Source: an uncultured Clostridia bacterium
GTDB lineage: Bacteria; Bacillota; Clostridia; Christensenellales; CAG-917
Assembly (NCBI GenBank): GCA_934233745.1
Contig: CAKQGN010000001.1
Span: forward strand, 322,621 to 386,620
Direction of reading: 5' to 3'
DNA: 64,000 nucleotides
Shown: positions 41,099 to 64,000 of the stretch, in pieces
How positions within the stretch are numbered: position 1 is the stretch's first letter
Layout: each line of letters begins with the position of its first letter
Position numbers and translations under genes: made by a program
Notes under the pieces: generated by a model
The model's input: the letters and a program-made list of their open reading frames with translations, nothing else
Database searches by the model: none
Told to the model about the DNA's origin: nothing

Positions 41099-41104
41099 AA
41101 CACA

Positions 41105-42400: not shown

Positions 42401-43095
42401 GTGAATGGTGGCAACTTGTTATTGCAATAAGTGGCAGCATTGTCACAGGCATAGTTTCTCTTGTCGGTGTTTATCTTACATTGAGACATAATGAGAAACT
42501 AGAACAAAAAAGATTTGCTCAACTGCAAAAAGATAAACAGCAAGAGATAATTGAAAATCGACCGGAATTTGAAATTTGCAGTTGGAACTTCGACACAACA
42601 GAAAAAGGATACGAGCCTGATGATTCTGTTGATATTGATTGTATGTTGACTTTGTATGGCGAGAAATATAAGAAAACTGATTTTGAAAATAAGTTGGTTT
42701 GTGCCAATTACACGATTAAAAATATAAGCAACAATGTCGTTGAATTTGTTGATTTGTGTTTTTATGACAATCAATACGAATTATTGAATATGAAAAAAGC
42801 AAATATAATCAAATTTGTTAAAGATCCTGATGCATATCCTACGACAACTTATATTAGATATTCGGGAATGAAAGTTAAACACAACCAAGAGATAAAGGTC
42901 AGGATATGGTATAGAGTCAACAATGTGCCACAGCGATTCATCTCATATTTGTGTTTTATCGGGTGCAGATCATTTGACAAAAGGTATTGGATTCAAAATT
43001 TTGAAGCACCGTTTGACGGAATAGAAGATAGTTGTCTTAATACCGAAAATGAATACTATTCGCTAATACATAGAAAAGGACAATGGGGAGCATAA
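42397..43095 (+). CDS. Hypothetical N-terminally membrane-anchored protein embedded between hsdS and hsdR
   Basis: Single TM segment WWQLVIAISGSIVTGIVSLVGVYLTL followed by a ~190-aa soluble domain with no recognised motif. The start overlaps the hsdS stop (ATGA). Confidence 0.6.
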   Translation: MSEWWQLVIAISGSIVTGIVSLVGVYLTLRHNEKLEQKRFAQLQKDKQQEIIENRPEFEICSWNFDTTEKGYEPDDSVDIDCMLTLYGEKYKKTDFENKLVCANYTIKNISNNVVEFVDLCFYDNQYELLNMKKANIIKFVKDPDAYPTTTYIRYSGMKVKHNQEIKVRIWYRVNNVPQRFISYLCFIGCRSFDKRYWIQNFEAPFDGIEDSCLNTENEYYSLIHRKGQWGA

Positions 43096-43096
43096 A

Positions 43097-46081
43097 ATGA
43101 ACAACATACTCACAGAAAAAGAATATCAGCGTTTTATCATAGATAAACTCGTTTTGGAAAACGGGTACATAGAGCGGAAAAGTGTGAAGTTTGACCGTAA
43201 TTTTGCCATAGACCGAGAAGTTTTGTTCAAGTTCTTGGACGACACACAGCCCGATGCAATGGCAAATATCCGCAAAGTGTATAAGGATGCGACGGAGGAT
43301 ACTGTCGTAAACTTTATCAATGCGGAAATCATAAAATCGCGCAGTAGCCTTGTTTCGGTGCTCAAGCACGGCGTTGAAATCGCAGGATACAAGATCGATT
43401 TGATGTACACGAAGCCGGCAACCACTTTCAACAAGGAACTTCTCGACAAATACAACAAAAACATTTTTTCCGTTATGGAAGAAGTGTGGGCAAGCGATAC
43501 GGAGCGTGTTGATCTTGTCGTGTTCTTAAACGGGTTTGCGATAATGTCATTTGAGTTGAAGTGCAATCTTGCAGGGCAGAATTATCAGGATGCCATAATG
43601 CAATTTCGCATGAATAGAAGCCCAAAAACGAGATTGTTTTTCTTCAAAGCAGGGTGCATTGTCAATTTTGCCATGGACTTGCAAGAAGTGTATATGACAA
43701 CGCGTCTTGCAGGTGAAAGCACGTTCTTTTTGCCGTTCAATATGGGCAGCGGAACCGGGATCGACGCCGGCAAAGGAAACCCTATATATGCGGATAGATA
43801 CTCGGTTTTCTATATGTGGGAAGATATACTCAAAAAAGATACGGTGTTAGACCTTATCTCGGAGTTTATCTTTATCGAACGCAAGGAAAAGATCGATGAC
43901 GTCACCGGCAAGGTTGTCGCAAAGGAAAGTGTTATATTCCCAAGATATCATCAACTTGACGTAATCCGCAAGGCGATTGCCGACGTGAAGGTCAATCGCA
44001 CGTCGCAAAACTATCTTATTCAACATAGCGCAGGCTCCGGAAAAACAAATTCGATTGCGTGGCTTGCACACAGGCTTTCGTCTTTGCACGACGATGACAA
44101 TAAGATTGTTTTTGACAACATCATTATTTGCACCGACCGTGTGGTTGTGGATAGACAATTGCAAGACGCAGTGCGTGGCATAGAGCATAAGACAGGGCTT
44201 ATAAAGGTGATGGACGACAAATGCTCGTCGGCAGATCTTGCACAGGCGCTTCAAAGCAATATCAAGATTATCGGAACGACAATACAGAAGTTTCCTTATA
44301 TCGTGGATACGGTCAAAAACCTGAAAAACAAGACTTTTGCAGTAATCATCGACGAGGCGCATTCTTCCACAGCCGGCAAGGATATGGCGGCAATCACAAT
44401 GACGCTTGGCGCGGGCGAAGTTGATTTTGAAGAGGGCGTTACCGATACGCAGGATATGATTGCGGACGAGATTGCCCGAAACGGAAAGCAAAAGAACGTT
44501 TCTATGTTTGCGTTTACCGCCACGCCAAAAGCAACGACTTTGGATTTGTTCGGCAGGCTGAATTCAAAAGGACAAAAAGAGGCGTTCCATCTGTATTCTA
44601 TGAAACAAGCCATAGAAGAAGGCTTTATTTTGGACGTGCTTGCAAATTTCACCGAATACAACACTTATTATACGCTAAACAAGGAAATATCCGAAGATCC
44701 CCAATATAAAACGGCAGAGGCAAAACGAAAGATTGCGCGATTCGTCGAGTTGCACGAAACAAATATTGCGCAAAGGGTGGAAGTTATCGTTGAACACTTC
44801 CGCACAACAGTTATGCAAGAGCTTGGCGGAATGGCAAAGGCGATGGTTGTTACTGCATCACGCGCAAGTGCGGTGAAGTATCGTCAAGCATTCGAAGATT
44901 ATGTTGCAAAGAAGGGTTATGACGGAATTCATGCACTCGTGGCATTTTCCGGAAAAGTCAAACTCGACGGCGACGAAACCGAGTATACGGAAACGTTATT
45001 GAACGGTTTTTCGGAAGATAAACTGCCCAAACGATTCGATTCCGACGATTACAACGTTTTGCTTGTTGCAAACAAGTATCAAACGGGCTTTGATCAACCC
45101 AAACTTTGTGCAATGTACGTTTTGAAGAAGTTGCGCGGTGTGAATGCCGTACAAACGTTGTCGAGATTGAATCGTATCTGTCCGCCGTTTGAGAAAAAGA
45201 CGTTTATTCTCGATTTCGTCAACACTTATCAGGATATAGTAAATGCGTTTGCACCATACTATACGACAACGTTGCTTGCAAATTCCGTTACGCCAACGGC
45301 AGTGTACAATATGGAAACGAAACTTGACGGATATATGATATTCGATCCCTATGATATAGATATGGCGGCGGAAATTATCTATAAAAAGTCAATTGACGCA
45401 CGAGCAAAAAAGCAACTGCAGTTTTATTTGCAACGCGCGGAAAAGAAACTCAAAGAATTCGATATACAAAAGCAAATCGAAATTATGGCGGTCATAAGGC
45501 ACTTTCTGCGTTTTTATGAATTCCTAATACAAGCGTCGTGCTTTGAAGACGTCGAGTTGCACAAAAAGTATTTGTTCTTGACCTATTTTATCTCGTACGT
45601 CAGCATATCGCAACCCGGTGGCGGATTTGACCTTTCGGGCAAGATTAAGGCGGATAATTTCATCCAAAAGAAAGGCGAAGAACATAAAACCGTAAAAGTT
45701 ATGCCGAGTCCGCTTGTTAGATTGCCAATTGCTGATGATTTCAATCTCAACGAAGATCAGATGAAACGTTTGTCTGAGATTATTGACGAAATCAACAGCA
45801 AAACCGGCAAAACGTATGACAATGACGTTGTGATCAAATCTATGCTGCAAATCAAGGATTTGATGATGAAATCCGACAAGCTGCGCGAGAGTGCAAAAGC
45901 AAATACTGAAAGTGACTTTGCGTTTTCTTATTTCGACGGGATCGACGACGCGCTTATAGAAGGTCTCTCACAGAATCAAGATTTCTTCTCGCTTTTGCTT
46001 TCAAATGACGAAATGAAAAAAGAAGTTTTGGGCATATTCGTCAGCGAAATATATAAGAGTTTGAGGGAAGATAGAAAATAA
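43097..46081 (+). CDS. hsdR: Type I restriction enzyme, R subunit (nuclease + SF2 helicase/translocase)
   Basis: N-terminal nuclease region: VDLVVFLNGFAIMSFELK (D...ExK). Helicase motif I: IQHSAGSGKTNSIAWLA. Motif II: VIIDEAHSS. Also VANKYQTGFDQP. Confidence 0.9.
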   Translation: MNNILTEKEYQRFIIDKLVLENGYIERKSVKFDRNFAIDREVLFKFLDDTQPDAMANIRKVYKDATEDTVVNFINAEIIKSRSSLVSVLKHGVEIAGYKIDLMYTKPATTFNKELLDKYNKNIFSVMEEVWASDTERVDLVVFLNGFAIMSFELKCNLAGQNYQDAIMQFRMNRSPKTRLFFFKAGCIVNFAMDLQEVYMTTRLAGESTFFLPFNMGSGTGIDAGKGNPIYADRYSVFYMWEDILKKDTVLDLISEFIFIERKEKIDDVTGKVVAKESVIFPRYHQLDVIRKAIADVKVNRTSQNYLIQHSAGSGKTNSIAWLAHRLSSLHDDDNKIVFDNIIICTDRVVVDRQLQDAVRGIEHKTGLIKVMDDKCSSADLAQALQSNIKIIGTTIQKFPYIVDTVKNLKNKTFAVIIDEAHSSTAGKDMAAITMTLGAGEVDFEEGVTDTQDMIADEIARNGKQKNVSMFAFTATPKATTLDLFGRLNSKGQKEAFHLYSMKQAIEEGFILDVLANFTEYNTYYTLNKEISEDPQYKTAEAKRKIARFVELHETNIAQRVEVIVEHFRTTVMQELGGMAKAMVVTASRASAVKYRQAFEDYVAKKGYDGIHALVAFSGKVKLDGDETEYTETLLNGFSEDKLPKRFDSDDYNVLLVANKYQTGFDQPKLCAMYVLKKLRGVNAVQTLSRLNRICPPFEKKTFILDFVNTYQDIVNAFAPYYTTTLLANSVTPTAVYNMETKLDGYMIFDPYDIDMAAEIIYKKSIDARAKKQLQFYLQRAEKKLKEFDIQKQIEIMAVIRHFLRFYEFLIQASCFEDVELHKKYLFLTYFISYVSISQPGGGFDLSGKIKADNFIQKKGEEHKTVKVMPSPLVRLPIADDFNLNEDQMKRLSEIIDEINSKTGKTYDNDVVIKSMLQIKDLMMKSDKLRESAKANTESDFAFSYFDGIDDALIEGLSQNQDFFSLLLSNDEMKKEVLGIFVSEIYKSLREDRK

Positions 46082-47731: not shown

Positions 47732-47789
47732 CAAAGTTTACAATATGGTTTACGATTATTACAAACTAGGTTTACAATATGGTTTACGA
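47728..47789 (+). promoter_or_regulatory. Promoter (TTGACA-17 nt-TACGAT) overlapped by two 20-bp direct repeats GTTTACAATATGGTTTACGA (candidate operator)
   Basis: TTGACA at 47728-47733 and TACGAT at 47751-47756. Perfect repeats at 47736-47755 and 47770-47789, immediately upstream of the RBS AAGGAG and ATG 47803. Confidence 0.5.
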
Positions 47790-47802
47790 CAAGGAGCGAT
47801 AT

Positions 47803-49050
47803 ATGAACGAAAAATTTGATTTAATGTTGTTTGGTCCAATGTATTATGACACGAAAGATTTGCGCTATAATAATGTTTATAAATTCTTTCTGTCAAATCA
47901 GCAACTCATAGAGTATAAGCAATATAAAAAGCAGCTTATTCAAAATCACGATAAAAAAATTGTGGTTGTAGATTTAAAACCATTCAACTCAGATTATATT
48001 TTCTTTGTCGAAGGGTTATGTTTGCTTAATTTGCAAACCACATACTTGCGAATTCTGAAAGATGACTTTCAAAACTTTCAATCAACCGTCGTTGAAAGAA
48101 ACCTTGGAGATATTTTGTGGGCGAGAGTATATTCTGAACTTGAAGGAAGTATGGAACTAGAAAATGTCCCAACCACACGTACGAGATTAGAACAAATAAA
48201 AAAAGGTTCTATGCCTAAAAATAAAAATGAAATCATTGCGAAAAACATGCTTGATGCGATAGAATTCATTTTGTCAAAACCAAAGTTTAACAAGGAAAAC
48301 CTATACTCGCTTTATAGTATTTTGAGCCATGATTGTTTGGAAGACCAACAAAAACTAAATGGTAATTATTACAGAAACGACAGCGTATATATTGGCAACT
48401 ATGAAGGCTGTCCATTTGAAAAAATCGATGACTGCATGAATAGCCTTTTCGATTTTGTCAATGCAAACTTAAGCGAAAAAAGCTACGTTAGTGAGAGCCT
48501 ATCTCATATTTGCCATTACTACGTGTTATATATACACCCGTACTTTGACTATAACGGAAGAACAGCGAGAATGGTTTCTCTTTGGATAAGCGTTTTGCAA
48601 AATGACTTCTCAACTGCGCCGCTTTTCATTAGTGAGGCAATTAATGACGATAAAAAACGTTATTACGATGCATTGAGCGAAACGAGAGATATGGAAAACG
48701 ATATGACATATTTTTTGATTTACATTATGAATACGTCTATTAGGTATTCCCTACTTTATAAGAATCTAAATTATATAAGCGACGAGATGTTAAAAAAGGG
48801 CATCACATTGACAAATTATGAAAAAGCTTATATTAAGAAGATTTTGCTCGGTGCGGAAGAAGGATATTTCGATTATAAAAAATTCCTAACTATCGCAAAT
48901 ATCGACATATCAAAGCAAGCAGCATTAAAAGCGTTGAATAAACTTGTAGAATATGGAATTTTATCAAGCATAATAAATGACAAAAGAGTAAAACTGTTCA
49001 AGCTGAACAATGAATTTGTCAAATATCGTTGTGTAAAAGATGTTAAATAG
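47803..49050 (+). CDS. Fic/DOC-family protein (AMPylase-type motif) with C-terminal wHTH-like domain
   Basis: Fic motif HPYFDYNGRTARMV matches HxFx(D/E)xNGRxxR. I prefer ATG 47803 (RBS AAGGAG at 47791-47796) to the track start 47779, which lies inside the repeat operator. Confidence 0.85.
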   Translation: MNEKFDLMLFGPMYYDTKDLRYNNVYKFFLSNQQLIEYKQYKKQLIQNHDKKIVVVDLKPFNSDYIFFVEGLCLLNLQTTYLRILKDDFQNFQSTVVERNLGDILWARVYSELEGSMELENVPTTRTRLEQIKKGSMPKNKNEIIAKNMLDAIEFILSKPKFNKENLYSLYSILSHDCLEDQQKLNGNYYRNDSVYIGNYEGCPFEKIDDCMNSLFDFVNANLSEKSYVSESLSHICHYYVLYIHPYFDYNGRTARMVSLWISVLQNDFSTAPLFISEAINDDKKRYYDALSETRDMENDMTYFLIYIMNTSIRYSLLYKNLNYISDEMLKKGITLTNYEKAYIKKILLGAEEGYFDYKKFLTIANIDISKQAALKALNKLVEYGILSSIINDKRVKLFKLNNEFVKYRCVKDVK

Positions 49051-51573: not shown

Positions 51574-51696
51574 ATGCATTGAAAAAAACAATTGCAATTA
51601 TGACATCTTCATATTGATTTGATATTATGCTGTGTTATAATTTATCAGTAGCTTCGAAATAGGCAATTTTATTGAGCGATGTAGATGGAGGAAAGT

Positions 51697-52587
51697 ATGA
51701 TATTTTCAAAACGATATAAAGACCTGTTAGTTAATGGCGATGACGTCCCCAATACTTTAAATTTTATTGGAGATATTGACTATTTCGCAAGGAAAGGGAT
51801 TGTTAGTGTTTTGAAGTCTTTTAATGAACCCAAAAAAGTAAAGATAAGCAGATATAGTAACGAAACCAGCGATAATGATGCATTTACATTAGCCTTAATG
51901 AAATTAAATCAAGAACTAGGCTATGATTTGTTCAACTTTAATGCGTTGTCATGTAATTACGGGACATCAATGGTTGATGAACAGTTGATGGGCGGAAACC
52001 TAAACTATCTTTTTGACGTGATTGAATTACAACATGACTTTTTATCCTCCAAGGAAAAATGTGAATTTACAAAGAATATCAATTCAGTTTTAAACGAATG
52101 CGAAATTCCATGGATGTTGGTTGATGGCAAAATGACAAAAGTAGATGCCAAACAGTTTGAATGTGATATAAAAAGAAAAACACTTGAAAAAATGAAAGAA
52201 TTATCAGATTGTGATTCAAAGTTTAAGCCCGCTTTTGAAGAGCTGCAAAAAGCTATAGAATTTTACAACAAAGAAGATTATTCGGAATCGATAACGAATG
52301 CGAACAAATGTTATGAAAGTGTGATGAAAGTCATTATGGGCACAAATGACGGAAATGCAGGTGAATTAACAAACAATATCAAGAACAAATTAGAATTGCC
52401 ATCAGCTATTAACAAAAATGGCTTTAAAGATCGCATACTTATGAGTTTGCCGTATCTACGCAACGAATTATCTTCACACGGTGCAGGAAGTGAAAAAAAC
52501 ACAATATCAAAGTCTTTGGCAAATCTTGCACTTAATTTAGCTGCATCGCTTTGCACATTTGTAATTGAAGATTTGCAACATAAGTAA
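51697..52587 (+). CDS. AbiJ-like / HEPN-motif protein
   Basis: ATG 51697 follows RBS GGAGGA. The C-terminal helical domain has LPYLRNELSSHGAGS, an Rx5H HEPN-type motif with Asn after the Arg. Confidence 0.45.
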   Translation: MIFSKRYKDLLVNGDDVPNTLNFIGDIDYFARKGIVSVLKSFNEPKKVKISRYSNETSDNDAFTLALMKLNQELGYDLFNFNALSCNYGTSMVDEQLMGGNLNYLFDVIELQHDFLSSKEKCEFTKNINSVLNECEIPWMLVDGKMTKVDAKQFECDIKRKTLEKMKELSDCDSKFKPAFEELQKAIEFYNKEDYSESITNANKCYESVMKVIMGTNDGNAGELTNNIKNKLELPSAINKNGFKDRILMSLPYLRNELSSHGAGSEKNTISKSLANLALNLAASLCTFVIEDLQHK

Positions 52588-52872: not shown

Positions 52873-52944
52873 TATTAAAAAAATCAGATTTATTACAACG
52901 AGGCGGATATAAGTACTTCTTTGTTGATTTAATAAGGAGTGAAA

Positions 52945-55900
52945 ATGGGGTTCATTTCCAGTCTTTTGGGAAAATTGCGAAAAGACAAAACAAATAATCT
53001 CCCGGTAGAATATAAATTAGTCCTTGATTTCAATAAGGATTTTTCTGACTTGTTAAAAAAAGACAAATTTTTAGCAAGAAGCGATTATAAACATTTAATT
53101 GAACAGTATAAAGATATTTATGTGTTTTTTAACAGTTGTCAAAACGCAAAAACATTGCAGTACTATTGTAAACAAAACAAAGTAGACGAGAAGACAATTG
53201 ATTATTTTTTGCATTCATATAAAGATATCGAGAACTTGCAAATAGGTTCAACAATAATTAATGAACACAATGAAAACTACATTGCTTTACATTTAAAAAC
53301 AGAAAAACCGTATCTTGACTCTATATTGCAAGAAATTGACCCAAAAATAATTCTTGACGAAGAGCAACGCAGAGTTATTCTTTCAGATGAGGATTATTCT
53401 TTAGTAATTGCGGGGGCTGGAGCGGGTAAAACGACAACCGTTGCGGCAAAAGTTCGCTATCTTGTAGAGAAGAAACACATCGATCCTAAACAAATACTTG
53501 TTATTTCTTTTACAAACAAAGCCGTTGGGGAGTTAAAAGAACGGATAAATGAAGGGCTAAAAATTCAGTGCCCCATAACAACTTTCCATAGCGCAGGTTA
53601 TGCTATATTACGAAAACAAGATGTCGAAAAGAGAAACATCGTCAGTGATGGGTTCCTTTTTAAGACCGTTAGCGATTACCTAGTAGGGAACATTTTAGAA
53701 CAACCGGAATTGGTCGATAAGCTGATAATGTTTTTCGGCTCATATTTTGATGCTCCGTATGAAGGTAACGATTTGAATTTGTTCTTTAATTATGTCTCGA
53801 AAGCCGACTTTTCTACATTGAAGAGTAATGTTAATGAGTATAACGAACAGATAATAGATAGAAGAACCAATAAAGCAATAACTATAACTAATGAATCGTT
53901 AAGATCGATTCAAGAAGTTCGCATAGCAAATTTTCTGTATCTTAACAATATTGATTATGTTTATGAAGAACCATATCAGTATCACATATTAAAAGCAAAG
54001 AAGCCTTATACGCCTGATTTCTGTATTAGACAAGGCGACAAAATCGCATATATCGAACATTTTGGAATAACAGAGGATGGACATCATAGTTTCTATTCTT
54101 CGGATGAATTGTTAAAGTATAAGAAAGAGATTAATGACAAAATCGCACTGCATAGAAAGCATGGTACAACGCTTATTTATACTTTTTCGAAGTATAATGA
54201 TGGTAGAGATTTGCTTGAGCACTTAAAAGAACAACTTGAAACAAATGGCTTTAAATTGCAACCGCGTTCATCTCAAGAAGTATTTGAAAAACTCGTTAAT
54301 ACCGAAGAAAACAAGTATATTTTGAAACTTGTCAAGTTGATATGCGTTTTTATAAATAACTTCAAGACTAACGGTTATGTTTTGGAGGATTTTTCTCGCT
54401 TTGAGAGAATGACCTCAAATGTTAGAACAAAACTGTTTTTAGATGTGTGCCAAGCATGTTATCATGAGTATCAAAAAAAATTGAGAGAGATCAATGCGAT
54501 TGATTTCCAAGATATGATAAACGATTCCGCTCGTATTTTGAGAGAAAAAGCCGTAGCAAAAGAGGCATTGGATTTCAAATATATTATAGTCGACGAGTAT
54601 CAAGATATATCGAGACAAAGATTTGATTTGACGAAAGAATTGTCAAATCTTTGTTCTGCAAAAATTATTGCCGTGGGTGATGATTGGCAATCTATTTATG
54701 CGTTTAGCGGATCTGACATAACACTGTTTACGCATTTTTGCTCAATAATGGGATATGGCCAAGAACTGAAAATAACTAAAACTTATAGGAATGCGCAAGA
54801 AGTTATAGATATAGCCGGTAATTTTATTCAAAAAAATGATAGCCAGATAAAAAAGTCATTGATTTCGCCCAAACATATTCAGAAGCCAGTTATCATTGAA
54901 ACGTATAGCGAGGATTTTGATAGAAAACAATTCCAAGGAAAGGGTGGAAAATACTATCAATTAGGCAAACAGCTTGAAACGGTTATCGGTCAAATATTAA
55001 AGAAAAATCAAGAAGAAGGCAAGGGCGCAAATTCTCCGATTTTGCTAATAGGTAGATATGGCTTTGATGCAAACAATCTCTGCTTTTCAAACGATTTTGT
55101 ATACGATGAGCAGAATAACAAAATATTCAGTAAAAAATACCGCAATGCAAAACTCGAATTTCTAACTGCACATAGTTCTAAAGGATTGGGTTATGACAAT
55201 GTCGTTATAGTCAATGCAAGGAACGAAATGTATGGATTTCCATCGAAAGTCGATAACGATCCCGTGATGCAGTACGTAGTTAAAGACGATAAAACGATTG
55301 ATTATGCAGAGGAACGGCGTTTGTTCTATGTCGCAATGACAAGAACAAAAAATCGGGTATACATAATTACCCCGCAACAACATCCTTCCGAGTTTATCTT
55401 GGAGTTAATTAAAGACTACCCAAACACCTTGGTTATCGGACAAATCGAGAAAGATAACCCAACGAATGTAGGGACTATAAAGAAATGCCCGATTTGCGGA
55501 TATCCTCTCCAATTGAAATGGAAAAAGAACTACGGCCTAAAGCTATGGATTTGCACGAACGAGCCAGAGGTTTGTGGCTTTATGACTAACGACTTAAAAG
55601 GCGGAGATATGTCGATACAAAAATGTCCCAAATGTAGAGACGGGTATTTGATTGTAAAGCCCGGTACAACTGAGCCTATTCTAGGATGCACCAACTATAA
55701 GCACGATAAAACGGGTTGTGATTGTCTAATGTCAAGAGAATATTACAAAAGGTGGCTTACGAATGGCTATGAAGATGATTTGTCTGTAGATAAACCTTCA
55801 TATTCTCAAAGTGAAATAAAGGAAATGCCTAAACTTGTTCCTCAAAAGTCAAAACCGATAATCGAAAGAAAGCCAATTCGAGTTCATACTACATCAGTAG

Positions 55901-56202
55901 AAGAAAAGTATATTGAAAAAGACGGTTTTGCTGTGATTGTAGATGATGATGGTGAACTGATAACGGATATGAAGTTGTTAAGACAATTAAGGGGGCTTAG
56001 GATTAAACTGATGAAGGAGAATAATTGTCAGGCTTATAATATCATTGGCAACAAAGGGTTAGTATCGTTGGCAACCTATAAACCCGAAACTAAAGAAGAG
56101 TTTATTGGCCTAAAAGGATTAGGTGAATCTACATACAGTTCATTCGGTAAGGCTTTTATTGATGAAATAAGGGAATATAATCGATTTGGCCACAGTGAAT
56201 GA
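52945..56202 (+). CDS. UvrD/Rep-family SF1 helicase of the helicase IV (HelD)-like type with C-terminal Topo-type C4 Zn-ribbons and an HRDC domain
   Basis: Walker A: LVIAGAGAGKTTTVAAK. Motif II: YIIVDEYQDIS. Helicase-IV-like insert: IANFLYLNNIDYVYEEPY...YTPDFCIRQGDKIAYIEHFG. Zn-ribbons: KKCPICGYPL...WICTN..VCGF and QKCPKCRDGYL...LGCTNY. HRDC-like segment: LLRQLRGLRIKLMKENNCQAYNIIGNKGLVSLATYKPETKEEFIGLKGLG. Confidence 0.85.
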   Translation: MGFISSLLGKLRKDKTNNLPVEYKLVLDFNKDFSDLLKKDKFLARSDYKHLIEQYKDIYVFFNSCQNAKTLQYYCKQNKVDEKTIDYFLHSYKDIENLQIGSTIINEHNENYIALHLKTEKPYLDSILQEIDPKIILDEEQRRVILSDEDYSLVIAGAGAGKTTTVAAKVRYLVEKKHIDPKQILVISFTNKAVGELKERINEGLKIQCPITTFHSAGYAILRKQDVEKRNIVSDGFLFKTVSDYLVGNILEQPELVDKLIMFFGSYFDAPYEGNDLNLFFNYVSKADFSTLKSNVNEYNEQIIDRRTNKAITITNESLRSIQEVRIANFLYLNNIDYVYEEPYQYHILKAKKPYTPDFCIRQGDKIAYIEHFGITEDGHHSFYSSDELLKYKKEINDKIALHRKHGTTLIYTFSKYNDGRDLLEHLKEQLETNGFKLQPRSSQEVFEKLVNTEENKYILKLVKLICVFINNFKTNGYVLEDFSRFERMTSNVRTKLFLDVCQACYHEYQKKLREINAIDFQDMINDSARILREKAVAKEALDFKYIIVDEYQDISRQRFDLTKELSNLCSAKIIAVGDDWQSIYAFSGSDITLFTHFCSIMGYGQELKITKTYRNAQEVIDIAGNFIQKNDSQIKKSLISPKHIQKPVIIETYSEDFDRKQFQGKGGKYYQLGKQLETVIGQILKKNQEEGKGANSPILLIGRYGFDANNLCFSNDFVYDEQNNKIFSKKYRNAKLEFLTAHSSKGLGYDNVVIVNARNEMYGFPSKVDNDPVMQYVVKDDKTIDYAEERRLFYVAMTRTKNRVYIITPQQHPSEFILELIKDYPNTLVIGQIEKDNPTNVGTIKKCPICGYPLQLKWKKNYGLKLWICTNEPEVCGFMTNDLKGGDMSIQKCPKCRDGYLIVKPGTTEPILGCTNYKHDKTGCDCLMSREYYKRWLTNGYEDDLSVDKPSYSQSEIKEMPKLVPQKSKPIIERKPIRVHTTSVEEKYIEKDGFAVIVDDDGELITDMKLLRQLRGLRIKLMKENNCQAYNIIGNKGLVSLATYKPETKEEFIGLKGLGESTYSSFGKAFIDEIREYNRFGHSE

Positions 56203-56411
56203 GTGCTTTTGCCACACGAAAAACAAGGATCGAAGTGTGTTGGTGTTTATCAATCTAATAAGAATAGACAGCTATCTGTATTTATAGAGTTCGTTGTCTT
56301 TGTTTTTCCCATATGCCTGAATGGCTTAAAAGCAATAGACGGCACGACCTATAAAACCGTAAAAGTCGGAGAAAAATCCATATTCCTAACAACTAAAAAT
56401 TCCCTCAAAGC

Positions 56412-56450
56412 AAACGAAAAGCCGGGAGCAAAACCTCTCGGCTTTCGTTT
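56412..56450. terminator. Bidirectional terminator between convergent genes
   Basis: AAACGAAAAGCCGGGAG - loop - CTCTCGGCTTTCGTTT, an imperfect ~16-bp stem flanked by A/T runs. It overlaps the stop codon of the minus-strand rSAM-like gene. Confidence 0.6.
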
Positions 56451-57210
56451 AATCTGATATGGTTCCTTCTTTGATATGATAAGCAATGTCGTGTTCATTG
56501 CAAAACTCGATAGTTTGCTGTGCCAACATGTTAAAAAATTCCTTATGATTTTTATACGCTGAGACCAGTTTATTGTAGTTTAATCTTCCAAAGATTATTT
56601 TATCTACGAATTTTATTGTCTCTAATATGTCGCGAAAATCCTGTTCGATTATATTAGGCGTCGGATAGGGTTCTATGCTCACCCAAGTCTTATAACCAGA
56701 GTCGTGCAAGTATTTTAATGCTTCTATTCTATCAACATATGAAGCTGAAAAGGGTTCCATTTCTTTCCTAAAATCTTCATTTAAAGAAATCAATGATATT
56801 CCATATTCATTTTCTTTTGATAAATTTGCTAGTTCATGAGGCAATATACCTTTGGTTAACACGGTACATTTTATTCCAGCGGAATTCAGTTTTTCAATAC
56901 AATTTAGACTCATCTTTTGAATTTCTTCATAACCATACATAAACGGATCTGTTGTAAAACACAGCTGAACAGATTTGATTTTATCTTTTAATTTAGGGAT
57001 CTCATTATCCAATAGCTCAAGAGCATTGATTACCAATTTAGGCTCACACCATTCTTCATATGACTTAATTTTGCCAAAACGCTTTGCTAAAAGCATAGCA
57101 TAACAGGGATACTTGCAACCATGTGCACATCCTTCAGCAATGTTGATTGTATAGTCGCCATATTCAACGCCTGTTTTATAAAGCAGACTTTTTCTTTCAA
57201 TGTAGTTCAT
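56449..57210 (-). CDS. Radical-SAM-like protein (SplB/COG1533-like) with CX3CX3C cluster spacing
   Basis: YTINIAEGCAHGCKYPCYAM resembles the GCxHxCxYCYA block of SplB-like radical SAM enzymes, but with one extra residue before the third Cys. Confidence 0.7.
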   Translation of the reverse strand: MNYIERKSLLYKTGVEYGDYTINIAEGCAHGCKYPCYAMLLAKRFGKIKSYEEWCEPKLVINALELLDNEIPKLKDKIKSVQLCFTTDPFMYGYEEIQKMSLNCIEKLNSAGIKCTVLTKGILPHELANLSKENEYGISLISLNEDFRKEMEPFSASYVDRIEALKYLHDSGYKTWVSIEPYPTPNIIEQDFRDILETIKFVDKIIFGRLNYNKLVSAYKNHKEFFNMLAQQTIEFCNEHDIAYHIKEGTISD

Positions 57211-58379
57211 AACAACTCCACAAATATATCATTTTTTAAAAAATCCAAAGACTTGGATGGCTTTCCAGCCGGCGTCAAAGGATTTTTACGGTGAATACGA
57301 ATTTTGCCAGCTATTTCTAGTTTTTGAAGTGCTTCTCTTATGTCCTTATGCAAATACTTTGGACCGTTTAAAGTGTTCGCTTTTAGACACAACTCCTTGC
57401 AATCAATTGGTTTATTAGTTCCATATTGTTGGAGTAACAAAATAATATCATCCTCACAAGAAACGCGAGAATAATCATAATCAAATATGGACTCTTGTTG
57501 CCCTCTATTATCCAAACTCATTTGATAACTACATTTTATCATGTTTTCGCACATAAATAAAGCCCCGTGAATATGTCGAGTGGCAAAAATCATTCTATAT
57601 TTTGGAATCTTGCAATCGCCGGTCTTGACTGCAAATTCAAATACATATTCAAAATCTTTACTTAGCACATTCATATATTGCTGGACAAACAATTCTTCCG
57701 CTTTGCGACCTGAAATGACGCCTTCTTTTTTTTGGTTGATAATATCCTGCCAATATGTACCATTTGCAATGGCATTCATATTTTCAACGCTATTTGCAAA
57801 AGTATCGTCGTCACTTTCTTCGAATGAACCTAAATCTTCATCAACTTCCGCGCCGAGAAGACGACAGCCTTCTCGAATAAATCCAAATGAATTTAGATTC
57901 AGCAACAACTCAACGCTATTCGGGTTTGACGCCAATTCAGAGAAAACATTGTACCGTAAATGCTTTATTCCAAACGGATCAACGCACATGAATATATTCT
58001 TGCCCTTATTCTTATCGCGAGACAAAATCGATAATGCTTCCTCTTTATAATCTTTATTAAGGACATAGCACCAATCGCGATCTAAAGCTTGCTTTAGACA
58101 ACTAGCATATTTCCTATTATATTCAATAAAAATTGGTATTACTTTGTTAGGATAACGGGTGGATTCGTGTGCTTGTTCGATTTTATCTCGTATTATTATT
58201 GGAGAACCATCCGTACCATCATCAAATTTTCCTTTTCCTGCAAAACCGTCAATGAATAACGTGTCTCGTCCTGTTGAGAGAATCTTTGAAAGATATAATT
58301 GCAAATAGTTTTCCAATAATTTATCTTTATAGATTGACCATCCTTTTTTCGTTTTAAAAAAACTTGAAGTGTTGCTCAT
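57207..58379 (-). CDS. TcmP-like (three-Cys-motif partner protein-like) protein with MTase-like DGFAGKG motif
   Basis: WSIYKDKLLENYLQLYLSKIL...TLFIDGFAGKGKFDDGTDGSPIII resembles my recollection of the TIGRFAM three-Cys-motif partner family. Its stop overlaps the start of the rSAM-like gene (ATGA-type 4-nt overlap). Confidence 0.5.
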   Translation of the reverse strand: MSNTSSFFKTKKGWSIYKDKLLENYLQLYLSKILSTGRDTLFIDGFAGKGKFDDGTDGSPIIIRDKIEQAHESTRYPNKVIPIFIEYNRKYASCLKQALDRDWCYVLNKDYKEEALSILSRDKNKGKNIFMCVDPFGIKHLRYNVFSELASNPNSVELLLNLNSFGFIREGCRLLGAEVDEDLGSFEESDDDTFANSVENMNAIANGTYWQDIINQKKEGVISGRKAEELFVQQYMNVLSKDFEYVFEFAVKTGDCKIPKYRMIFATRHIHGALFMCENMIKCSYQMSLDNRGQQESIFDYDYSRVSCEDDIILLLQQYGTNKPIDCKELCLKANTLNGPKYLHKDIREALQKLEIAGKIRIHRKNPLTPAGKPSKSLDFLKNDIFVELL

Positions 58380-58382
58380 CGT

Positions 58383-61300
58383 TTACTCCATGGGTTTTAT
58401 CATTGTATTGATGAAAGAGATTTCTTCCAATGTCAACTTGCATTTATCGCAGATTTGCTGATTTATTTCGTTTATGGTTTTTGAAAAATCAATAAGACTA
58501 CTCGTGTCTGTATAATCCAAAATATCAGGCACAAATTTTGCGAGAGCGGATAAGGATTCATCAGACAACAAGAAGGCATATTTAATAATTGGACAATTAG
58601 CATATTTGAAAAAGTTTTTGGCCTCTTGTTCTGTTTTAAAAGATTTTAATGCAACTCTTGCGCGTCCAAAAACACTGTGATTATCAATTATCGCCATTTG
58701 ATTATCCCTGCCTTCTTGACCGCCTGGATGAGCACTTGAAACTACAACTTGCCATTCATTTATATACCCAAGATTATTAGTGATCAAGCTTTTATTTATG
58801 ACAAACCAACCGCTTCTTCCTGCAGGTCCTGCTTTATCATTTGTTAATACTTTTATATCATTGGGGCCTAAAGACTCTCCCTCAATATATTTTCTTGTTG
58901 CAACAAGATTTTTTTCGATAAAATCACTTTCAATTCCGAACAGAGATCTTGACAAAATACTTTTATGCAAATATTCTAAATTATTAGATTCCACAAATTG
59001 TTTTATTTTGTTTGCAATGCTTATGTCTTGAGGGTTGATAAGCAGCAAATCGTCTCCTGGATTGGTTTGAATCACGGAAAGCTTGCTTCGGTCCGTGATA
59101 TACTCATATTTAAATTCCTCCGAATCCTTATCTTTGTCCATTACGACAATAGAAATACCGTCAGAAATGTCAGTACATTCAAATACATCTTTTGACTTTG
59201 GATAAAAGATAACCTTGCTGAGATTTCTTGAATTTATCAACTGTTTACCAAATTCTTTTAATCCTTTTCCCGATTGATGAATCCAACGGATGCCAGGGAA
59301 AATCAAAACTGAATATTTATTCGCTATTTGTTCAGATAGAATTTGAAAGTATTGAAAAATATTTGTCCGCGGGTTTTGTCCATTTGTATTGCTGTTATTT
59401 TTTGCTTCAGATTGATACGGAGGATTACCTACAACTGCTTCAAATTTTATCATATCGTTTTCTCCTTCGGTGAGGGTATCTGTCAATTTTATTGTATCGA
59501 ACGGCTTGTTCTGCGTCAGCAACGCCTTGATCTTATCGTAATCGACGTTGTTATCCTTTTTGACTTCAAGTAAGTCGGTTGCTACAAATTCTTTTGCTAT
59601 GTTTGCCACGTTTAACCCCAGCATTTCGTAAAGCTTTCGCGTGAGTTCATAACATACGGACGATTTTGGAATGATGTATATGCTGTTTTTGACAATCTCT
59701 TCCGATACACCCAAAGCGCACATTTTTTTATAGAGCGCAACGGCATATTCGCCGGCAGTCCCTGCAATATCCAAAACTTTTCCGTTTGTTTGAGAGAGTG
59801 CTGTGTAGGTTTCATCGGGGATGAGGCTTACCATATCATCACAAATATTCGACGGCGTAACGACAATCGCATCGCCTAATTTCCCGAATTTGTTTATTGC
59901 AACGGACGCTTTTTCTGCAGGGCTCAAAGTGTCGTCATTTGACAATTTGTTCAAATTTTGGATTTTATAATCCAAATCGCTTAGTACAAACTTGTTTGTT
60001 TGTTGATTCAGCAAAGAAAGAACTTCGACGTTTAAGCCCAGATTTTTGATTATTCTTGCATTATCTTCGGTGGTGCTTTTTACAATAATATCGGCAAGAG
60101 AAATCACCGTATCTTTTGTGATAAATGCAAATAGCAAAATCCTTGCGTAATAACTCTGAATCTTTTTCGACAAGCTTTGTTCTTTATTTTTTTGCTCGTC
60201 AATAGAAATAGGCTCGGCTTTAGTAGGATTGTCAGGATTATCTTTGTTGTTGGACGAATCTGGGATATTCATATCTTCGACTTCTTCTTCGCCGTCTTCT
60301 TGTTCATGTGCGACAGTGGAAAGACCCGACTTTGAGCCGATTTCGTTCTCTTTTTCTATTGCGGAACGAATTGTGTCGTCGTTAAGAACGCTTAAATCGA
60401 CGGGGACTTCCAATGCCTCGTCTTTTATACCTTTGTTCTTTTGATAATTGCTGACCGCTTCAAGAATGTCGCTTGCGACAACTTTGACGATTTTATCTTT
60501 ATTCAGCGTAATTATAGGAGAAATTTCCAACTCTTGTCGTATGCGTTTTTCGAGTTCGGTATTTCCGCCTGTTTCAACGTTTACATTATAGATTTTGGAT
60601 TTTCTTTCTTGCATAGCGAACATTCTGTTCGGATCGAAATCGACGAGCAGAGTCTGCGGCTTCTTATTGAATTTTATCGTATGTCCGTTGCTATCTGTAT
60701 AAGTCGTAACATACTGATTTTGCAGGCGAAAAACTGCCTGATCATATTCTTGCGGTGATGCTGTATCTTTGAAAAACAGCATCGTATCCCATTCGCGCAC
60801 GGTGCTGCCTGTAAGCATACGATTGACCGTGAGCGTTATAGTCTTTTTGCCTTCAGATTCAAATTTTGCAATTGCTCGCTTTACATCTTCGGCTGTTTTA
60901 TACTTATTGGGATTATCTACGCCGGATATGTTTACGATTTCATATTCGCCGAGATTTTTGAAATGTTTTTCGTTATTTTTAATTAACGCTTCTAATGCGT
61001 CACAAGATGCGCAATACGGCAAAACAATAACCATATGCCTGCACATTTTGCCTTCTTTGATTTTATCGTAATCAAGAAAACCTAAAAGACAATCGTCCTC
61101 TTTACTTCCGTCAATAACCGAGAACAAATCCAATAGTTCTTCTTCATTTTCGAATAGTTTATGTGAGCCGTCATCTGCCTTTTTGATTGATTTGGGTTTG
61201 AAAAGAGCAGAAAAAGCATACGTTGTTCCGCTTGTTCTAAGACTTTCGAGTTTTTTGCGCGACGATTCGTTAGGTACAAATGCAAAACGAACCATCTGCG

Positions 61301-62483
61301 GGAAACCATAATAAGGGTTCTCCCAATCTTCTTTCTTTTCTTCTTCGGGTAAAGCGAAATTTTCTTCGTCCCATTTCTTTTGGTCGTTTACTATATCCGT
61401 AAATTGGTAAAAAGCGATAATATCTTCTTTCGAAAATTCGCTTCCCATCAAAATGCGATACGGCGTTCCCGACAAATGAATTGTATTTTTTGCTTTTAAT
61501 ACTTTGATTGCGGCATCCGCTTCGCTTGCTTCTACAAAATCGTCGGCATCCTTTTTATTCTTTGCGTCGGCAACGTAATTCGTCGCTCCTTTAAGAACTT
61601 CTCCGTATTTTTCTGCGCGTGCTCCGAAATGTGTTTCATCTACGAGCAATAAATCGATATCTTGTCCAAAGACTTCTTGATGCTTGTTTTTTATGGCTTT
61701 GCCTTGCAAGTCTTGTAAGGTCAAAAAGACGACAACCTTTTTGCCCGACGATAATTTTTCGGTAATCAAATGATTGTTTCGCAATAAATTTTTCGCCGAA
61801 ATAAAATCATAATCTGCAAAAAGAACGTGACTTTCGACCGTCTTTTTCCATTCGGACAAAACGTCGGCTTTTGCCGATACGACAACCACCAAACTATCAT
61901 TATTCGCAACGGCGCAGCACATAGAAGTGAACGACTTGCCGAAACGCATTACGGCATACATCAATAAATTGTGGCGGTCGTCTGCAACTGCCTTTTTGAA
62001 TGCCTTAACCGTATCTTCCTGATTCGGACGCAATGGATAAGTTTCCGTGCGCTGAAAAGCCATATCTTCCGGTTTAAGCGTTTCCGCATTATAAAAAGAG
62101 TATTTTTGTGTTTTTGCCGAAAAATCTCTTTTTATATCTTCAATAGCTTCTTCCAAATCTTCGACGGAAGCATCCTTGAAAAACTCTTTCGAATAATATA
62201 CATCGGCAGGAATATCTGAAAGAAGAAGCCTTATTCTGCTTTTTTCGGTTTCTAAGAATTTATGTACTGCAAAATCGCGAAAATAAACATCATCGATTTT
62301 CGCAATAGAATCAAACTCCTTTTTTAATGTGGGGAAATACGCTTCCCATTCTTTTAATCTGACGGACACAGGACGATACGTATCGCCGACCTTCAGATAA
62401 TTAGGAATTGTATTCGTCGAAAACGCATAGATATGAGGCTCTACGCGCCCAATGATTATTTCGTCCAAAAGCGAGTAATCCAT
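58383..62483 (-). CDS. Giant fusion: T5orf172/GIY-YIG-like N-domain + SF2 (DExH) helicase + gamma-class N6-adenine DNA methyltransferase + C-terminal recognition-like region (Type ISP-like architecture)
   Basis: N-terminus: GRVEPHIYAFSTNTIPNYLKVGDTYRPVSVRLKEW (T5orf172-like). Helicase motifs: MYAVMRFGKSFT (motif I), LLLVDETHFGA (motif II), VNRMLTGSTVREWDTMLFF...QAVFRLQN (motifs V/VI). MTase motifs: VLDIAGTAGEYA (motif I), FEAVVGNPPYQ (motif IV). Confidence 0.85.
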   Translation of the reverse strand: MDYSLLDEIIIGRVEPHIYAFSTNTIPNYLKVGDTYRPVSVRLKEWEAYFPTLKKEFDSIAKIDDVYFRDFAVHKFLETEKSRIRLLLSDIPADVYYSKEFFKDASVEDLEEAIEDIKRDFSAKTQKYSFYNAETLKPEDMAFQRTETYPLRPNQEDTVKAFKKAVADDRHNLLMYAVMRFGKSFTSMCCAVANNDSLVVVVSAKADVLSEWKKTVESHVLFADYDFISAKNLLRNNHLITEKLSSGKKVVVFLTLQDLQGKAIKNKHQEVFGQDIDLLLVDETHFGARAEKYGEVLKGATNYVADAKNKKDADDFVEASEADAAIKVLKAKNTIHLSGTPYRILMGSEFSKEDIIAFYQFTDIVNDQKKWDEENFALPEEEKKEDWENPYYGFPQMVRFAFVPNESSRKKLESLRTSGTTYAFSALFKPKSIKKADDGSHKLFENEEELLDLFSVIDGSKEDDCLLGFLDYDKIKEGKMCRHMVIVLPYCASCDALEALIKNNEKHFKNLGEYEIVNISGVDNPNKYKTAEDVKRAIAKFESEGKKTITLTVNRMLTGSTVREWDTMLFFKDTASPQEYDQAVFRLQNQYVTTYTDSNGHTIKFNKKPQTLLVDFDPNRMFAMQERKSKIYNVNVETGGNTELEKRIRQELEISPIITLNKDKIVKVVASDILEAVSNYQKNKGIKDEALEVPVDLSVLNDDTIRSAIEKENEIGSKSGLSTVAHEQEDGEEEVEDMNIPDSSNNKDNPDNPTKAEPISIDEQKNKEQSLSKKIQSYYARILLFAFITKDTVISLADIIVKSTTEDNARIIKNLGLNVEVLSLLNQQTNKFVLSDLDYKIQNLNKLSNDDTLSPAEKASVAINKFGKLGDAIVVTPSNICDDMVSLIPDETYTALSQTNGKVLDIAGTAGEYAVALYKKMCALGVSEEIVKNSIYIIPKSSVCYELTRKLYEMLGLNVANIAKEFVATDLLEVKKDNNVDYDKIKALLTQNKPFDTIKLTDTLTEGENDMIKFEAVVGNPPYQSEAKNNSNTNGQNPRTNIFQYFQILSEQIANKYSVLIFPGIRWIHQSGKGLKEFGKQLINSRNLSKVIFYPKSKDVFECTDISDGISIVVMDKDKDSEEFKYEYITDRSKLSVIQTNPGDDLLLINPQDISIANKIKQFVESNNLEYLHKSILSRSLFGIESDFIEKNLVATRKYIEGESLGPNDIKVLTNDKAGPAGRSGWFVINKSLITNNLGYINEWQVVVSSAHPGGQEGRDNQMAIIDNHSVFGRARVALKSFKTEQEAKNFFKYANCPIIKYAFLLSDESLSALAKFVPDILDYTDTSSLIDFSKTINEINQQICDKCKLTLEEISFINTMIKPME

Positions 62484-62497
62484 GTCGTTTCCTGTCC

Positions 62498-63463
62498 TTA
62501 CCTTTTGATTAGACTGACAAATTTAACTCTTTTATTTGTCGACCAGTCCATGATATAGCAATAGATACCGTTATGTTTATTGGGGGTGTTTGTTTTACAA
62601 CCTTCACATTCCATTTTGTGATGCTCCTCGCCGAACAGCGTATATACTGTTTCGTCAACGGATTTGCAACTGTTTGGAATTACATATTTCAAACCGTCCA
62701 TTTGCCAAATGTTCCAAGAAATTATCTCTGCGAAGTCAATGAGGTATTCGGTGATGGGAGAAAGCCCGAATTTATCTGTGTAGTAGTCGATAAAAGTGCG
62801 TAAAAGATTTTCACGAGCAAGCAGAACATTGTCGCCTTGCCAATCGAATCCATAGACACTTTTGAACGCAATTTTTGCCCATTCAACCCATTCTTGCTCG
62901 CCATCGACGTTTTCAGAAATGACGCGAAGTTTTCTGTCAAGTAACCCGATTCTTTCTTTTATAGCAATTATATTGCCGGTTACAGTATCATAACGACTGA
63001 CAAGATAAGGAGCTTCTCCACAAGTTATCTCAAGGCGATTTTCTTTAACGTAGTCTTGCCATGATTTTCCTTCGGGGAAAGTTATTCTCTCAAGATTAAC
63101 AATCCACCCTTTATCTGTTTCGGTGTTGAATACATTTCCTTTTCCAAACCAAGCATCATCAATAAGGTTATTTTGCGCATTACAAATCCATGATGGGGTA
63201 AAAACCTCGGCTTTGTCTTTAACACGTGATGCTTGTTCTTTTTTTGATTTTTCAACACGCGGCTTTATAACGCTGCCATTGCGTTTTATGATTGCATTGC
63301 TTGTTATATGATCGTATGATTGGTATCCAACTCCTCTTGACGCGTAATTATCTGTCGCCCAAATCAAGTTCTTTTTGGACGAGTGGTCTATAAGCAGTGC
63401 TTCGAGCAACTTGCTGTCAAGTTTAAAAATATTCGTTTCCTTGATGTCAATATTATAGTTCAT
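62498..63463 (-). CDS. MTase-fold-like protein with degenerate motifs, function unknown (first gene of the minus-strand operon)
   Basis: KAEVFTPSWICNAQNN resembles the xVxTP block of gamma-class MTases. LEITCGEAPYL resembles a degenerate motif I, and VYGFDWQGDNVLLARENL resembles motif II/III. No NPPY was found. The next gene starts 14 nt downstream. Confidence 0.4.
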   Translation of the reverse strand: MNYNIDIKETNIFKLDSKLLEALLIDHSSKKNLIWATDNYASRGVGYQSYDHITSNAIIKRNGSVIKPRVEKSKKEQASRVKDKAEVFTPSWICNAQNNLIDDAWFGKGNVFNTETDKGWIVNLERITFPEGKSWQDYVKENRLEITCGEAPYLVSRYDTVTGNIIAIKERIGLLDRKLRVISENVDGEQEWVEWAKIAFKSVYGFDWQGDNVLLARENLLRTFIDYYTDKFGLSPITEYLIDFAEIISWNIWQMDGLKYVIPNSCKSVDETVYTLFGEEHHKMECEGCKTNTPNKHNGIYCYIMDWSTNKRVKFVSLIKR

Positions 63464-63600: not shown

Positions 63601-64000
63601 ATTTGCCTGTTAGACGTGCCGTAGTCTTTGATACAAGTGCGCACGCGTACGCGCGCGCAAGACTACGGCACGTCTTTGCATAAAAACAAACCCAAATCCG
63701 CAAAAGGCGGCACGGAGCGGAGCGAGGTTTCGCGCTAACCCGCTTGGCGAAATCCTCGCTTATCCGCCATGCCGTTGCCGTCGCTTTTTCTTGCGGTTTT
63801 CTTGGGTATTTTGTATATTGCAAAATCTCGTTTGCCGTTTCGTTCTTTTGTGTTGCGTAGGCGTTGCACTATTGTTCCGCAATCATATTTTCATTATCAA
63901 ATTTGTGTTCAAATCACGTTCCGTTATTGTTTCAAATTTGTCCAAATCACGCACAACAGTGTTCTTGTTTGTTCATTCGTCTATGTTTACGATGTGTATT
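63601..64000 (+). repeat. R scaffold module, copy B (runs off window)
   Basis: Near-identical to 49238-49637. Includes the perfect 17-bp inverted repeat at 63612-63628 / 63659-63675 and the 38-bp core at 63610-63647. Confidence 0.85.

Follow-up and report, generated by a model that had tools for sequence, protein, structure and literature searches.

A four-gene cluster at the edge of a clostridial defence island, read as two probably separable modules: a helicase-driven restriction-modification pair and a TcmP/radical-SAM pair

Classical Type IIG restriction-modification (RM) enzymes, such as Eco57I and MmeI, have no helicase motor and cleave at a fixed distance. Type ISP enzymes work by methylation of one strand, translocation, and collision cleavage at head-to-head sites, and the literature on them had already noted related enzymes with GIY-YIG nucleases (PMC3553950). 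In Bacillus subtilis and Vibrio crassostreae, the DnmA-YeeB-YeeC operon, located in defence islands, encodes an MmeI/Eco57I-like adenine methyltransferase (MTase) together with an SF2 helicase and a T5orf172 protein, and the Vibrio cluster affects phage sensitivity (PMC9973331). The locus described here is a cluster of four minus-strand genes, called A to D below, in a stretch of 64,000 nucleotides (nt) from an uncultured Clostridia bacterium (GenBank assembly GCA_934233745.1, contig CAKQGN010000001.1, positions 322,621 to 386,620); this whole stretch is referred to as the window, and all coordinates are given in it. In the reading we prefer, with a probability of roughly 70%, the four genes lie on the edge of a defence island and fall into two adjacent, separable modules of two genes each, an RM enzyme encoded by A and B, and a pair of S-adenosylmethionine (SAM) proteins encoded by C and D. 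The open reading frames (ORFs), with lengths in amino acids (aa), are as follows:

62498..63463, minus strand: gene A, ORF of 321 aa
58383..62483, minus strand: gene B, ORF of 1366 aa, predicted to hold a nuclease, a translocase, an N6-adenine MTase and a recognition domain in a single polypeptide
57207..58379, minus strand: gene C, ORF of 390 aa, a TcmP protein with a class I SAM-MTase fold followed by a winged helix-turn-helix (wHTH)
56449..57210, minus strand: gene D, ORF of 253 aa, a radical-SAM protein in the neighbourhood of SplB, PA0069 and 'mobile pair B'

The four ORFs and their spacing (a 14-nt gap between A and B, a 3-nt gap between B and C, and a 4-nt overlap of C and D) are exactly as claimed in the original prediction, an earlier note made from the sequence of this stretch. 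That note took the four genes together as one candidate novel system, and it named a lack of linkage in other genomes among the results that would count against this; such a lack is largely what was found. Linkage was judged from the giant, as B and its relatives will be called, in the best 80 of 442 loci with B relatives, taken from contigs of one genome per species and from many phyla. The 442 loci come from Bacillota, Bacteroidota, Campylobacter, Alphaproteobacteria, Spirochaetota, Lentisphaeria and Fibrobacteraceae; there are at least 4636 homologues of B, and the A-B family is very common among gut and rumen bacteria. A homologue of A adjoins the giant in 76 of the 80 species-level loci, and three of the four loci without one are contig ends. 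C and D were found in none of the 80 (by tblastn and by hidden Markov models built from the C and D families), 62 of which have at least 2.5 kb of flank downstream of the giant. The A-B pair is thus strictly conserved, and A is the constant partner of such giants. Homologues of A also pair with divergent giants on Pediococcus and Enterococcus plasmids; as an example, on the Pediococcus plasmid pRS5 an A homologue (hhalign E 2e-62) lies directly ahead of a giant that is only 24% identical to B.

What follows the giant is far less constant. Among its relatives the slot downstream holds Ymh, AbiTii, DUF4365, DUF1016/YhcG or DUF262 genes, as in an E. faecium plasmid with the order helix-turn-helix gene, A, giant, DUF262. 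Metagenomic giants that are 57-80% identical to B have no C-D and are followed by DUF4365, AbiTii, DUF1016/YhcG or unrelated genes, and this includes the giants closest to B (77-80% identical), which carry other cargo. In the window this variable position after the giant is taken by C-D; in relatives it goes to Abi-type genes, DUF4365, DUF262 or DUF1016.

Seen from TcmP, the picture is the same. There are 909 detectable relatives of C, and D lies directly after C in about 66 of 80 metagenome loci; in several of the others a protein of 243-250 aa stands in this place, and both of those that were scanned are bona fide DUF5131 proteins. In most metagenome loci D is 57-75% identical while C is only 33-47% identical. 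Most C-D pairs have no A-B nearby. C-D has many contexts: at the locus L090 it lies (C 94% identical) without A-B beside Cas12a, and elsewhere the pair adjoins a Gabija-like pair and a recombinase. L090 and three further loci (L091 to L093) have a second pair just upstream of C-D, beside Cas12a (L090, ~5232-7493), consisting of a 322-aa protein, which lacks a Pfam match and is not recognised by tblastn as a homologue of A, and a Radical_SAM protein of 429 aa. Distant TcmP pairs are in nine loci preceded by a 128-aa zinc-ribbon protein (L130 7498-7884, L166 8162-9619 and similar), and this is itself sometimes preceded by an IrrE/Peptidase_M78 protein with zinc ribbons.

The borders of the two modules can be followed in recombination footprints, which involve these features of the window:

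62498..62657, minus strand: 3' end of A (its last 54 residues), swapped together with the giant in L101; the ~97% identity stops at 62657
56350..58469, minus strand: C-D cassette as in L090, made up of about 90 nt of the B tail, C, D and the hairpin
56418..56445, no strand: G+C-rich hairpin of 11 pairs (6 G-C) with a terminator-like score on both strands
58402..58430, minus strand: promoter-like site from a consensus scan (TTGGAA, 17 nt, TACAAT), within the 3' end of B and 22 nt upstream of the C start

L101, a locus from a human gut metagenome, shares about 97% nucleotide identity with the window over 64000-62657 and again over 58493-53106 (blastn), with no alignment between 62657 and 58493. 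The unaligned gap takes in the last 54 codons of A and almost the whole giant. In its place L101 has a giant that is 23% identical to B and of the same T5orf172-helicase-MTase architecture, and all differences but one between A and its L101 counterpart lie within residues 268-321. Giant and A tail move as one cassette, and C-D stays put. The block 56350-58469, in turn, is found at 93% nucleotide identity over 2123 bases in L090, a locus without A or B, and C-D thus travels as a cassette of its own, with its own terminator. Taken together, the giant swap in L101 and the block in L090 make A-B and C-D separate units of inheritance. The hairpin overlaps the D stop codon, the closest plus-strand gene ends about 215 nt short of it, and a role as bidirectional terminator is plausible. 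The promoter-like site falls within the block that moves with C-D in both L090 and L101 and is a candidate promoter for this pair, which probably has one of its own. It is on these results (no C-D in the 80 A-B loci, C-D mostly without A-B, and a giant exchanged beside an unchanged C-D) that the claim of one novel four-gene system falls.

Gene B can be divided into four parts:

62133..62435, minus strand: T5orf172 (GIY-YIG-related) head, residues 17-117 (PF10544)
60564..62039, minus strand: SF2 helicase-like motor, about residues 149-640, with Walker A (FGKS), DETH, SGTP and QAVFRLQ
59181..60173, minus strand: gamma-class N6-adenine MTase core, with motif X (VVTPSNICDDM), motif I (VLDIAGTAGEYA) and motif IV (NPPY)
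58584..59393, minus strand: variable target-recognition region, about residues 1031-1300

This is the division that had been proposed from the sequence (T5orf172 head, SF2 motor, NPPY MTase and recognition region, in a Type ISP-like order), and the profile matches bear it out. A scan restricted to residues 1-141 gives the head a match to T5orf172 (PF10544) with E 3.7e-7 and 31 bits (cut-off 20), which a scan of the whole protein missed. The motor matches ResIII (PF04851, E 3.1e-9, residues 149-299), and the MTase matches Eco57I (PF07669, E 1.4e-16, residues 970-1101), with NPPY at 59415-59426. In 17 homologues the following residues do not vary: Y19, Y29, K31, G33, T35, R37, R42 and E45 in the head, the Walker A GKS and D282, E283 and H285 of DETH in the motor, and T876, P877, D905, G911, E912 and N1020-Y1023 in the MTase. 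Mean identity in the same set is 78-80% in the motor and 0.73-0.80 across the catalytic domains, against 0.42 over residues 1031-1300, where the family consensus is mostly undefined; such a low identity relative to the catalytic parts is what a recognition domain would be expected to show. The whole protein matches the PADLOC model REase_MTase_IIG (PDLC03626) with 1256.7 bits, residues 5-1365 lying on positions 11-1359 of the 1359 of the profile.

Gene A is matched over its full length by another PADLOC model, MTase_II (PDLC03390, E 2e-130); in Pfam, NCBIfam, the PDB sequences and PHROGs it has no match. A search of 1.84 billion representative proteins gave 2178 clusters of A relatives. Invariant or nearly so are the motifs AEVFTPSW, LEITCGEAPYL, RIGLLDRK, QGD..AR.N and WN.WQMDG, the first two of which line up with motifs X and I of gamma-class MTases. 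In the sequence of A there is no NPPY-type motif IV and no recognition domain. Both are present in longer relatives of 650-717 aa, in which FDFVIGNPPYQ begins no more than about 20 residues after an A domain and leads into a recognition half similar to the C-terminal 350 residues of B; A itself stops about ten residues short of the point where these fused relatives continue into FDFVIGNPPYQ. In another relative (P0413) the A domain is joined to a ResIII helicase region. The match to motif I and the fusions to an NPPY/recognition half mark A, on its motifs, as the N-terminal SAM-binding half (motif X, motif I and a helical insert) of an Eco57I-type gamma-class MTase, kept as a protein of its own. 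Rather than an independent MTase, it is most likely a subunit that is physically bound and not self-sufficient, and that has a regulatory or assembly role. Where A had earlier been called a degenerate MTase, the lack of NPPY stands, while the fused relatives show an N-terminal half rather than a full MTase that lost this motif. Aligned with each other by hhalign, the A and B families match in the TP motif only, in the motif X region, with a probability of 3.9%.

Public records name relatives of A 'restriction endonuclease subunit M', 'restriction endonuclease' or 'hypothetical protein', and because these records disagree the names are not used as evidence. The name 'restriction endonuclease' prompted a look at A as a PD-(D/E)XK nuclease, a reading that was rejected because the motif I match and the fusions to NPPY halves fit the N-terminal half of an MTase. 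It is worth noting a plasmid of Bifidobacterium longum (NZ_CP065398.1, 3549-10364), which carries an A homologue, an IS256 insertion, a 383-aa Eco57I NPPY/recognition half and a 1113-aa helicase protein, so that the two MTase halves are present there as separate genes.

Genes C and D had been read as a TcmP-like protein and a CX3CX3C radical-SAM-like protein, and both readings hold. C matches TcmP (TIGR04474) with 108.2 bits against a cut-off of 53, and the PADLOC candidate models PDC-M30A and PDC-M41A with E 1.2e-16 and 4.7e-8; a match to GMT-wHTH is under the cut-off. An AlphaFold2 model of C, with a mean predicted local distance difference test (pLDDT) score of 87.5, has a SAM-MTase fold of class I and, after it, a winged helix, and in a structure search with this model the PDB matches ranked 1-24 and most matches in BFVD (viral) were SAM MTases, none of them close. 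D44, F46, A47 and G48 (DGFAG) and D134, P135 and G137 (DPFG) are invariant in 20 homologues, and a DP[FY]G motif is conserved in the family. D matches Radical_SAM (PF04055) with E 6.7e-14 and 52.8 bits against a cut-off of 29.5, over residues 22-198. Its cysteine cluster CAHGCKYPC (C28, C32 and C36, at 57103-57129) has the spacing CX3CX3C, not the canonical radical-SAM spacing CX3CX2C, and all three cysteines are invariant in 63 distinct homologues. Variant cluster spacings occur in the Radical SAM superfamily. Below threshold, D is weakly like the spore-photoproduct-lyase, PA0069, Rv2578c and 'mobile pair B' families (SPL, E 4.4e-4; TIGR04470 and NF033668 far under cut-off), and it matches PDC-M30B (E 2.4e-3) and PDC-M41B (E 5.1e-4) weakly and in an N-terminal stretch only. 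Against DUF5131 (PF07505) it reaches E 2.5e-3 and 17.8 bits, under the gathering cut-off of 28.9 and in the N-terminal 80 residues only; by comparison, true DUF5131 proteins that accompany other TcmPs reach 314-345 bits. Searching PDB chains by sequence and by profile gave nothing meaningful for A, C or D. In PHROGs C has no match and D matches two families without an assigned function, and blastn of C-D against plasmids gave no match. A role of C-D mainly as a phage anti-restriction module was considered and dropped, TcmP relatives being rare in viral contigs (17 loci in 2.9 million contigs). In the literature no functional study of TcmP/DUF5131/three-Cys/PDC-M30/PDC-M41 pairs was found, only passing annotations; C-D is a widespread TcmP/radical-SAM pair for which no published function was found.

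By analogy with Type ISP, the first module (A and B, 58383-63463) would be an ATP-dependent RM machine. The variable C-terminal domain of B would read an asymmetric target, and its NPPY MTase would methylate adenine there and so mark host DNA; on unmarked DNA the SF2 motor would translocate and the T5orf172/GIY-YIG-type head would cut. For the second module (C and D, 56350-58469) we infer SAM-dependent chemistry on DNA bases, independent of which giant adjoins, from an MTase fold with a DP[FY]G loop, a wHTH and a radical-SAM partner weakly like spore photoproduct lyase.

Several points weigh against this reading of two modules and the functions given to them. Against PDB chains, solved Type ISP structures included, B has no significant sequence match. 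The AlphaFold2 model of A, from an alignment of 24 sequences, is unusable (pLDDT 50), and the fold of A and its binding to B are therefore read only from motifs, fusions and co-swapping. No biochemical or genetic data on members of the A-B or C-D families were found in the literature, and DnmA-YeeB-YeeC, the nearest split system to have been studied, showed no restriction phenotype when examined in B. subtilis (PMC9973331). The 3-nt junction of B and C is compatible with co-transcription by read-through. C-D also follows a module of A plus giant in at least four lineages: in the window, in L101 (C 97% identical), in L094 (C 65%, with a Ymh gene between giant and TcmP), in L104 (C 42%) and in L001 (D 68%, with a TcmP too divergent for tblastn), and a short contig (L102) has a giant fragment just upstream of C. 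Finally, of the 66 C loci with enough flank, 16 have an N6-MTase-like gene at a distance of up to about 4.5 kb and in every case on the same strand, more than one would expect if the neighbourhood were purely accidental. These neighbours belong to several unrelated families, such as a B-like giant (B'), an HSDR_N_2+N6_Mtase protein with HsdS, and HsdM, and since C-D recurs co-oriented beside several kinds of N6-MTase RM genes, C-D may have a looser functional link with RM. In one lineage (L112, L115, L123, L126 and L142; for example L112, 1108-6284) TcmP, radical SAM, a 618-aa HSDR_N_2+N6_Mtase protein and HsdS form an apparent operon.

Some of these points, with the tight packing and the single terminator, would be accounted for if all four genes formed one RM-type system, in which TcmP and radical SAM add a second DNA chemistry that the giant's restriction needs or reads. 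The recurrent order A, giant, sometimes Ymh, TcmP, radical SAM fits this, as does the persistence of C-D through the giant swap in L101. It has to be set against the absence of C-D from the 80 A-B loci and the other cargo of giants as close as 77-80%, the many C-D pairs without A-B, the C-D of L090 (93% nucleotide identity) without A-B, and the 114-aa ORF or Ymh that relatives have inserted between giant and TcmP, and a single four-gene system is improbable. The co-oriented MTase neighbours point in another direction, that C-D serves N6-adenine MTase RM modules at large as an optional accessory, a back-up effector or a modifier at or beside m6A, whose position by B is functional without being specific to B. 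Back-up effectors of this kind exist, as PrrC is embedded in a Type I system and held in check by the intact RM complex. In the five loci of the lineage just mentioned the start of the MTase gene overlaps the stop of the D-type gene, and RM operons of the window and its relatives hold embedded Abi-type genes. The count of 16 in 66 is, however, a raw one, no defence genes are more common than those of RM, islands are often co-directional, several of the 16 loci are one lineage (MTase 95-100% identical), and about three quarters of the C-D loci have no N6-MTase neighbour. As RM genes are so common in islands, the set is partly one lineage and the count is raw, this explanation is kept as a live rival that is rather unlikely, and not as the preferred one.

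Two further alternatives concern one module each. A could be an active DNA MTase that methylates the second strand, as M.Eco57I does for R.Eco57I, and the full-length PADLOC match, the invariance of motifs X and I and the NCBI name 'subunit M' of some members agree with it. Against it are the missing motif IV and recognition domain, the end of the protein about ten residues before the FDFVIGNPPYQ of the fused relatives, the other names given to other homologues, and the fact that enzymes of Type ISP-like kind manage without a second MTase (PMC3553950); we give it little chance. C-D could also be a DNA-repair or housekeeping pair, with D a SplB-like lyase, that happens to lie in a recombination-prone spot and is unrelated to defence. 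The weak matches of D to the spore photoproduct lyase, PA0069 and Rv2578c families are what favours this, and they are far under the family cut-offs; the patchy, mobile distribution of the pair beside recombinases, Cas12a, Gabija-like genes and RM, and the match of TcmP to PADLOC defence-candidate models, make it very improbable. A bolder reading would have TcmP and the three-cysteine radical SAM protein as a portable accessory of several unrelated N6-adenine MTase RM types, providing radical-SAM-dependent base chemistry as a second self-mark or as a back-up when RM is inhibited, and A as a new kind of regulatory subunit whose exchangeable C-terminal 54 residues would dock it onto helicase-MTase giants; this is speculative and we consider it doubtful.

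The surroundings of the cluster are those of a defence island, which extends over 38-56 kb of the window with the four genes at its edge. Within it lie a Fic protein, an AbiJ/Abi_C protein, a UvrD-HRDC helicase and a Type I RM operon that contains an AbiJ-like gene. In the Type I RM operon (38041-46081; HsdM from 38041, HsdS from 41105 and HsdR from 43097), the AbiJ_NTD4 gene (40196-41098) sits between hsdM and hsdS and an unassigned 232-aa ORF (42397-43095) between hsdS and hsdR, a further example of accessory genes inside an RM operon. A second AbiJ_NTD4/DUF7014/Abi_C protein (51685-52587) and the Fic-domain protein (47779-49050) lie in the same island, and G+C falls to 27-30% over 46-48 kb. 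The helicase, of UvrD type and 1087 aa (52939-56202), converges on gene D. A large insert splits its UvrD domain into two halves, and it also has zinc ribbons of Top1 type and, at the C-terminus, an HRDC domain; L101 retains it next to C-D with about 98% nucleotide identity. About 150 nt upstream of A, a perfect 17-nt inverted repeat (AGACGTGCCGTAGTCTT / AAGACTACGGCACGTCT, 63612-63675) brackets a G+C-rich palindrome in an otherwise A+T-rich leader, and could be an operator, a terminator or a recombination site. No homopolymer tract of the phase-variation type was found in genes A to D.

The family of A and B is common and inconsistently annotated and has no studied member, which is why even one characterised pair would be valuable: it would annotate thousands of genes. 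Residues 268-321 of A are a candidate interface between A and B. The exchange of the giant in L101 is a natural experiment, in which the restriction type was changed at a fixed locus between strains that are about 97% identical. For C-D, the repeated co-oriented placement of TcmP pairs beside adenine-MTase RM modules is a testable lead.

Among described systems, C-D is closest to the TcmP/three-Cys pairs (TIGR04474 with DUF5131): C is over the TcmP cut-off, and a three-cysteine protein comes next with a 4-nt overlap. Relatives of C take either a D-type or a bona fide DUF5131 partner at the same position, and D differs from the latter in being a regular Radical_SAM member under the DUF5131 cut-off. 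The pair is also related to the PADLOC candidates PDC-M30 and PDC-M41, C matching the A models and D, weakly, the B models. For A and B, standard defence annotators would call an RM system of type IIG, as PDLC03626 and PDLC03390 match end to end. The composition had earlier been put forward as novel; full-length matches to existing RM models mean that A-B is already catalogued, though not characterised, and it is a catalogued but unstudied helicase-driven RM enzyme with a small partner. The labels 'Type IIG' and 'Type II MTase' are computational bins: B differs from classical Type IIG enzymes such as Eco57I and MmeI by an SF2 motor of about 500 residues between nuclease and MTase, and A differs from its MTase label (PDLC03390) in that the catalytic half is absent. 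B resembles the Type ISP enzymes LlaGI and LlaBIII, in which a single chain likewise runs from a nuclease at the N-terminus through an SF2 motor and a gamma-class NPPY adenine MTase to a recognition domain at the C-terminus. By tblastn it is distantly similar (about 24%) to plasmid-borne giants of lactic-acid bacteria that combine a helicase and an Eco57I MTase in one polypeptide. Its matches include nine records of Lactococcus plasmids; on Lactococcus plasmids no homologue of A was found. Two features set B apart from Type ISP, namely the head, which is of T5orf172/GIY-YIG type and not an Mrr PD-(D/E)XK nuclease (there is no Mrr_cat match), and the conserved partner A of 320 aa (76 of 80 loci), on which B may or may not depend; Type ISP enzymes act as single polypeptides. 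From sequence alone, then, B would follow a Type ISP-like logic with a GIY-YIG-type head. The same three activities are found in DnmA-YeeB-YeeC, with the difference that there the MTase, helicase and T5orf172 parts are three separate proteins in this order, whereas B joins them in one chain, T5orf172 first, then helicase, then MTase, with A encoded ahead of it.

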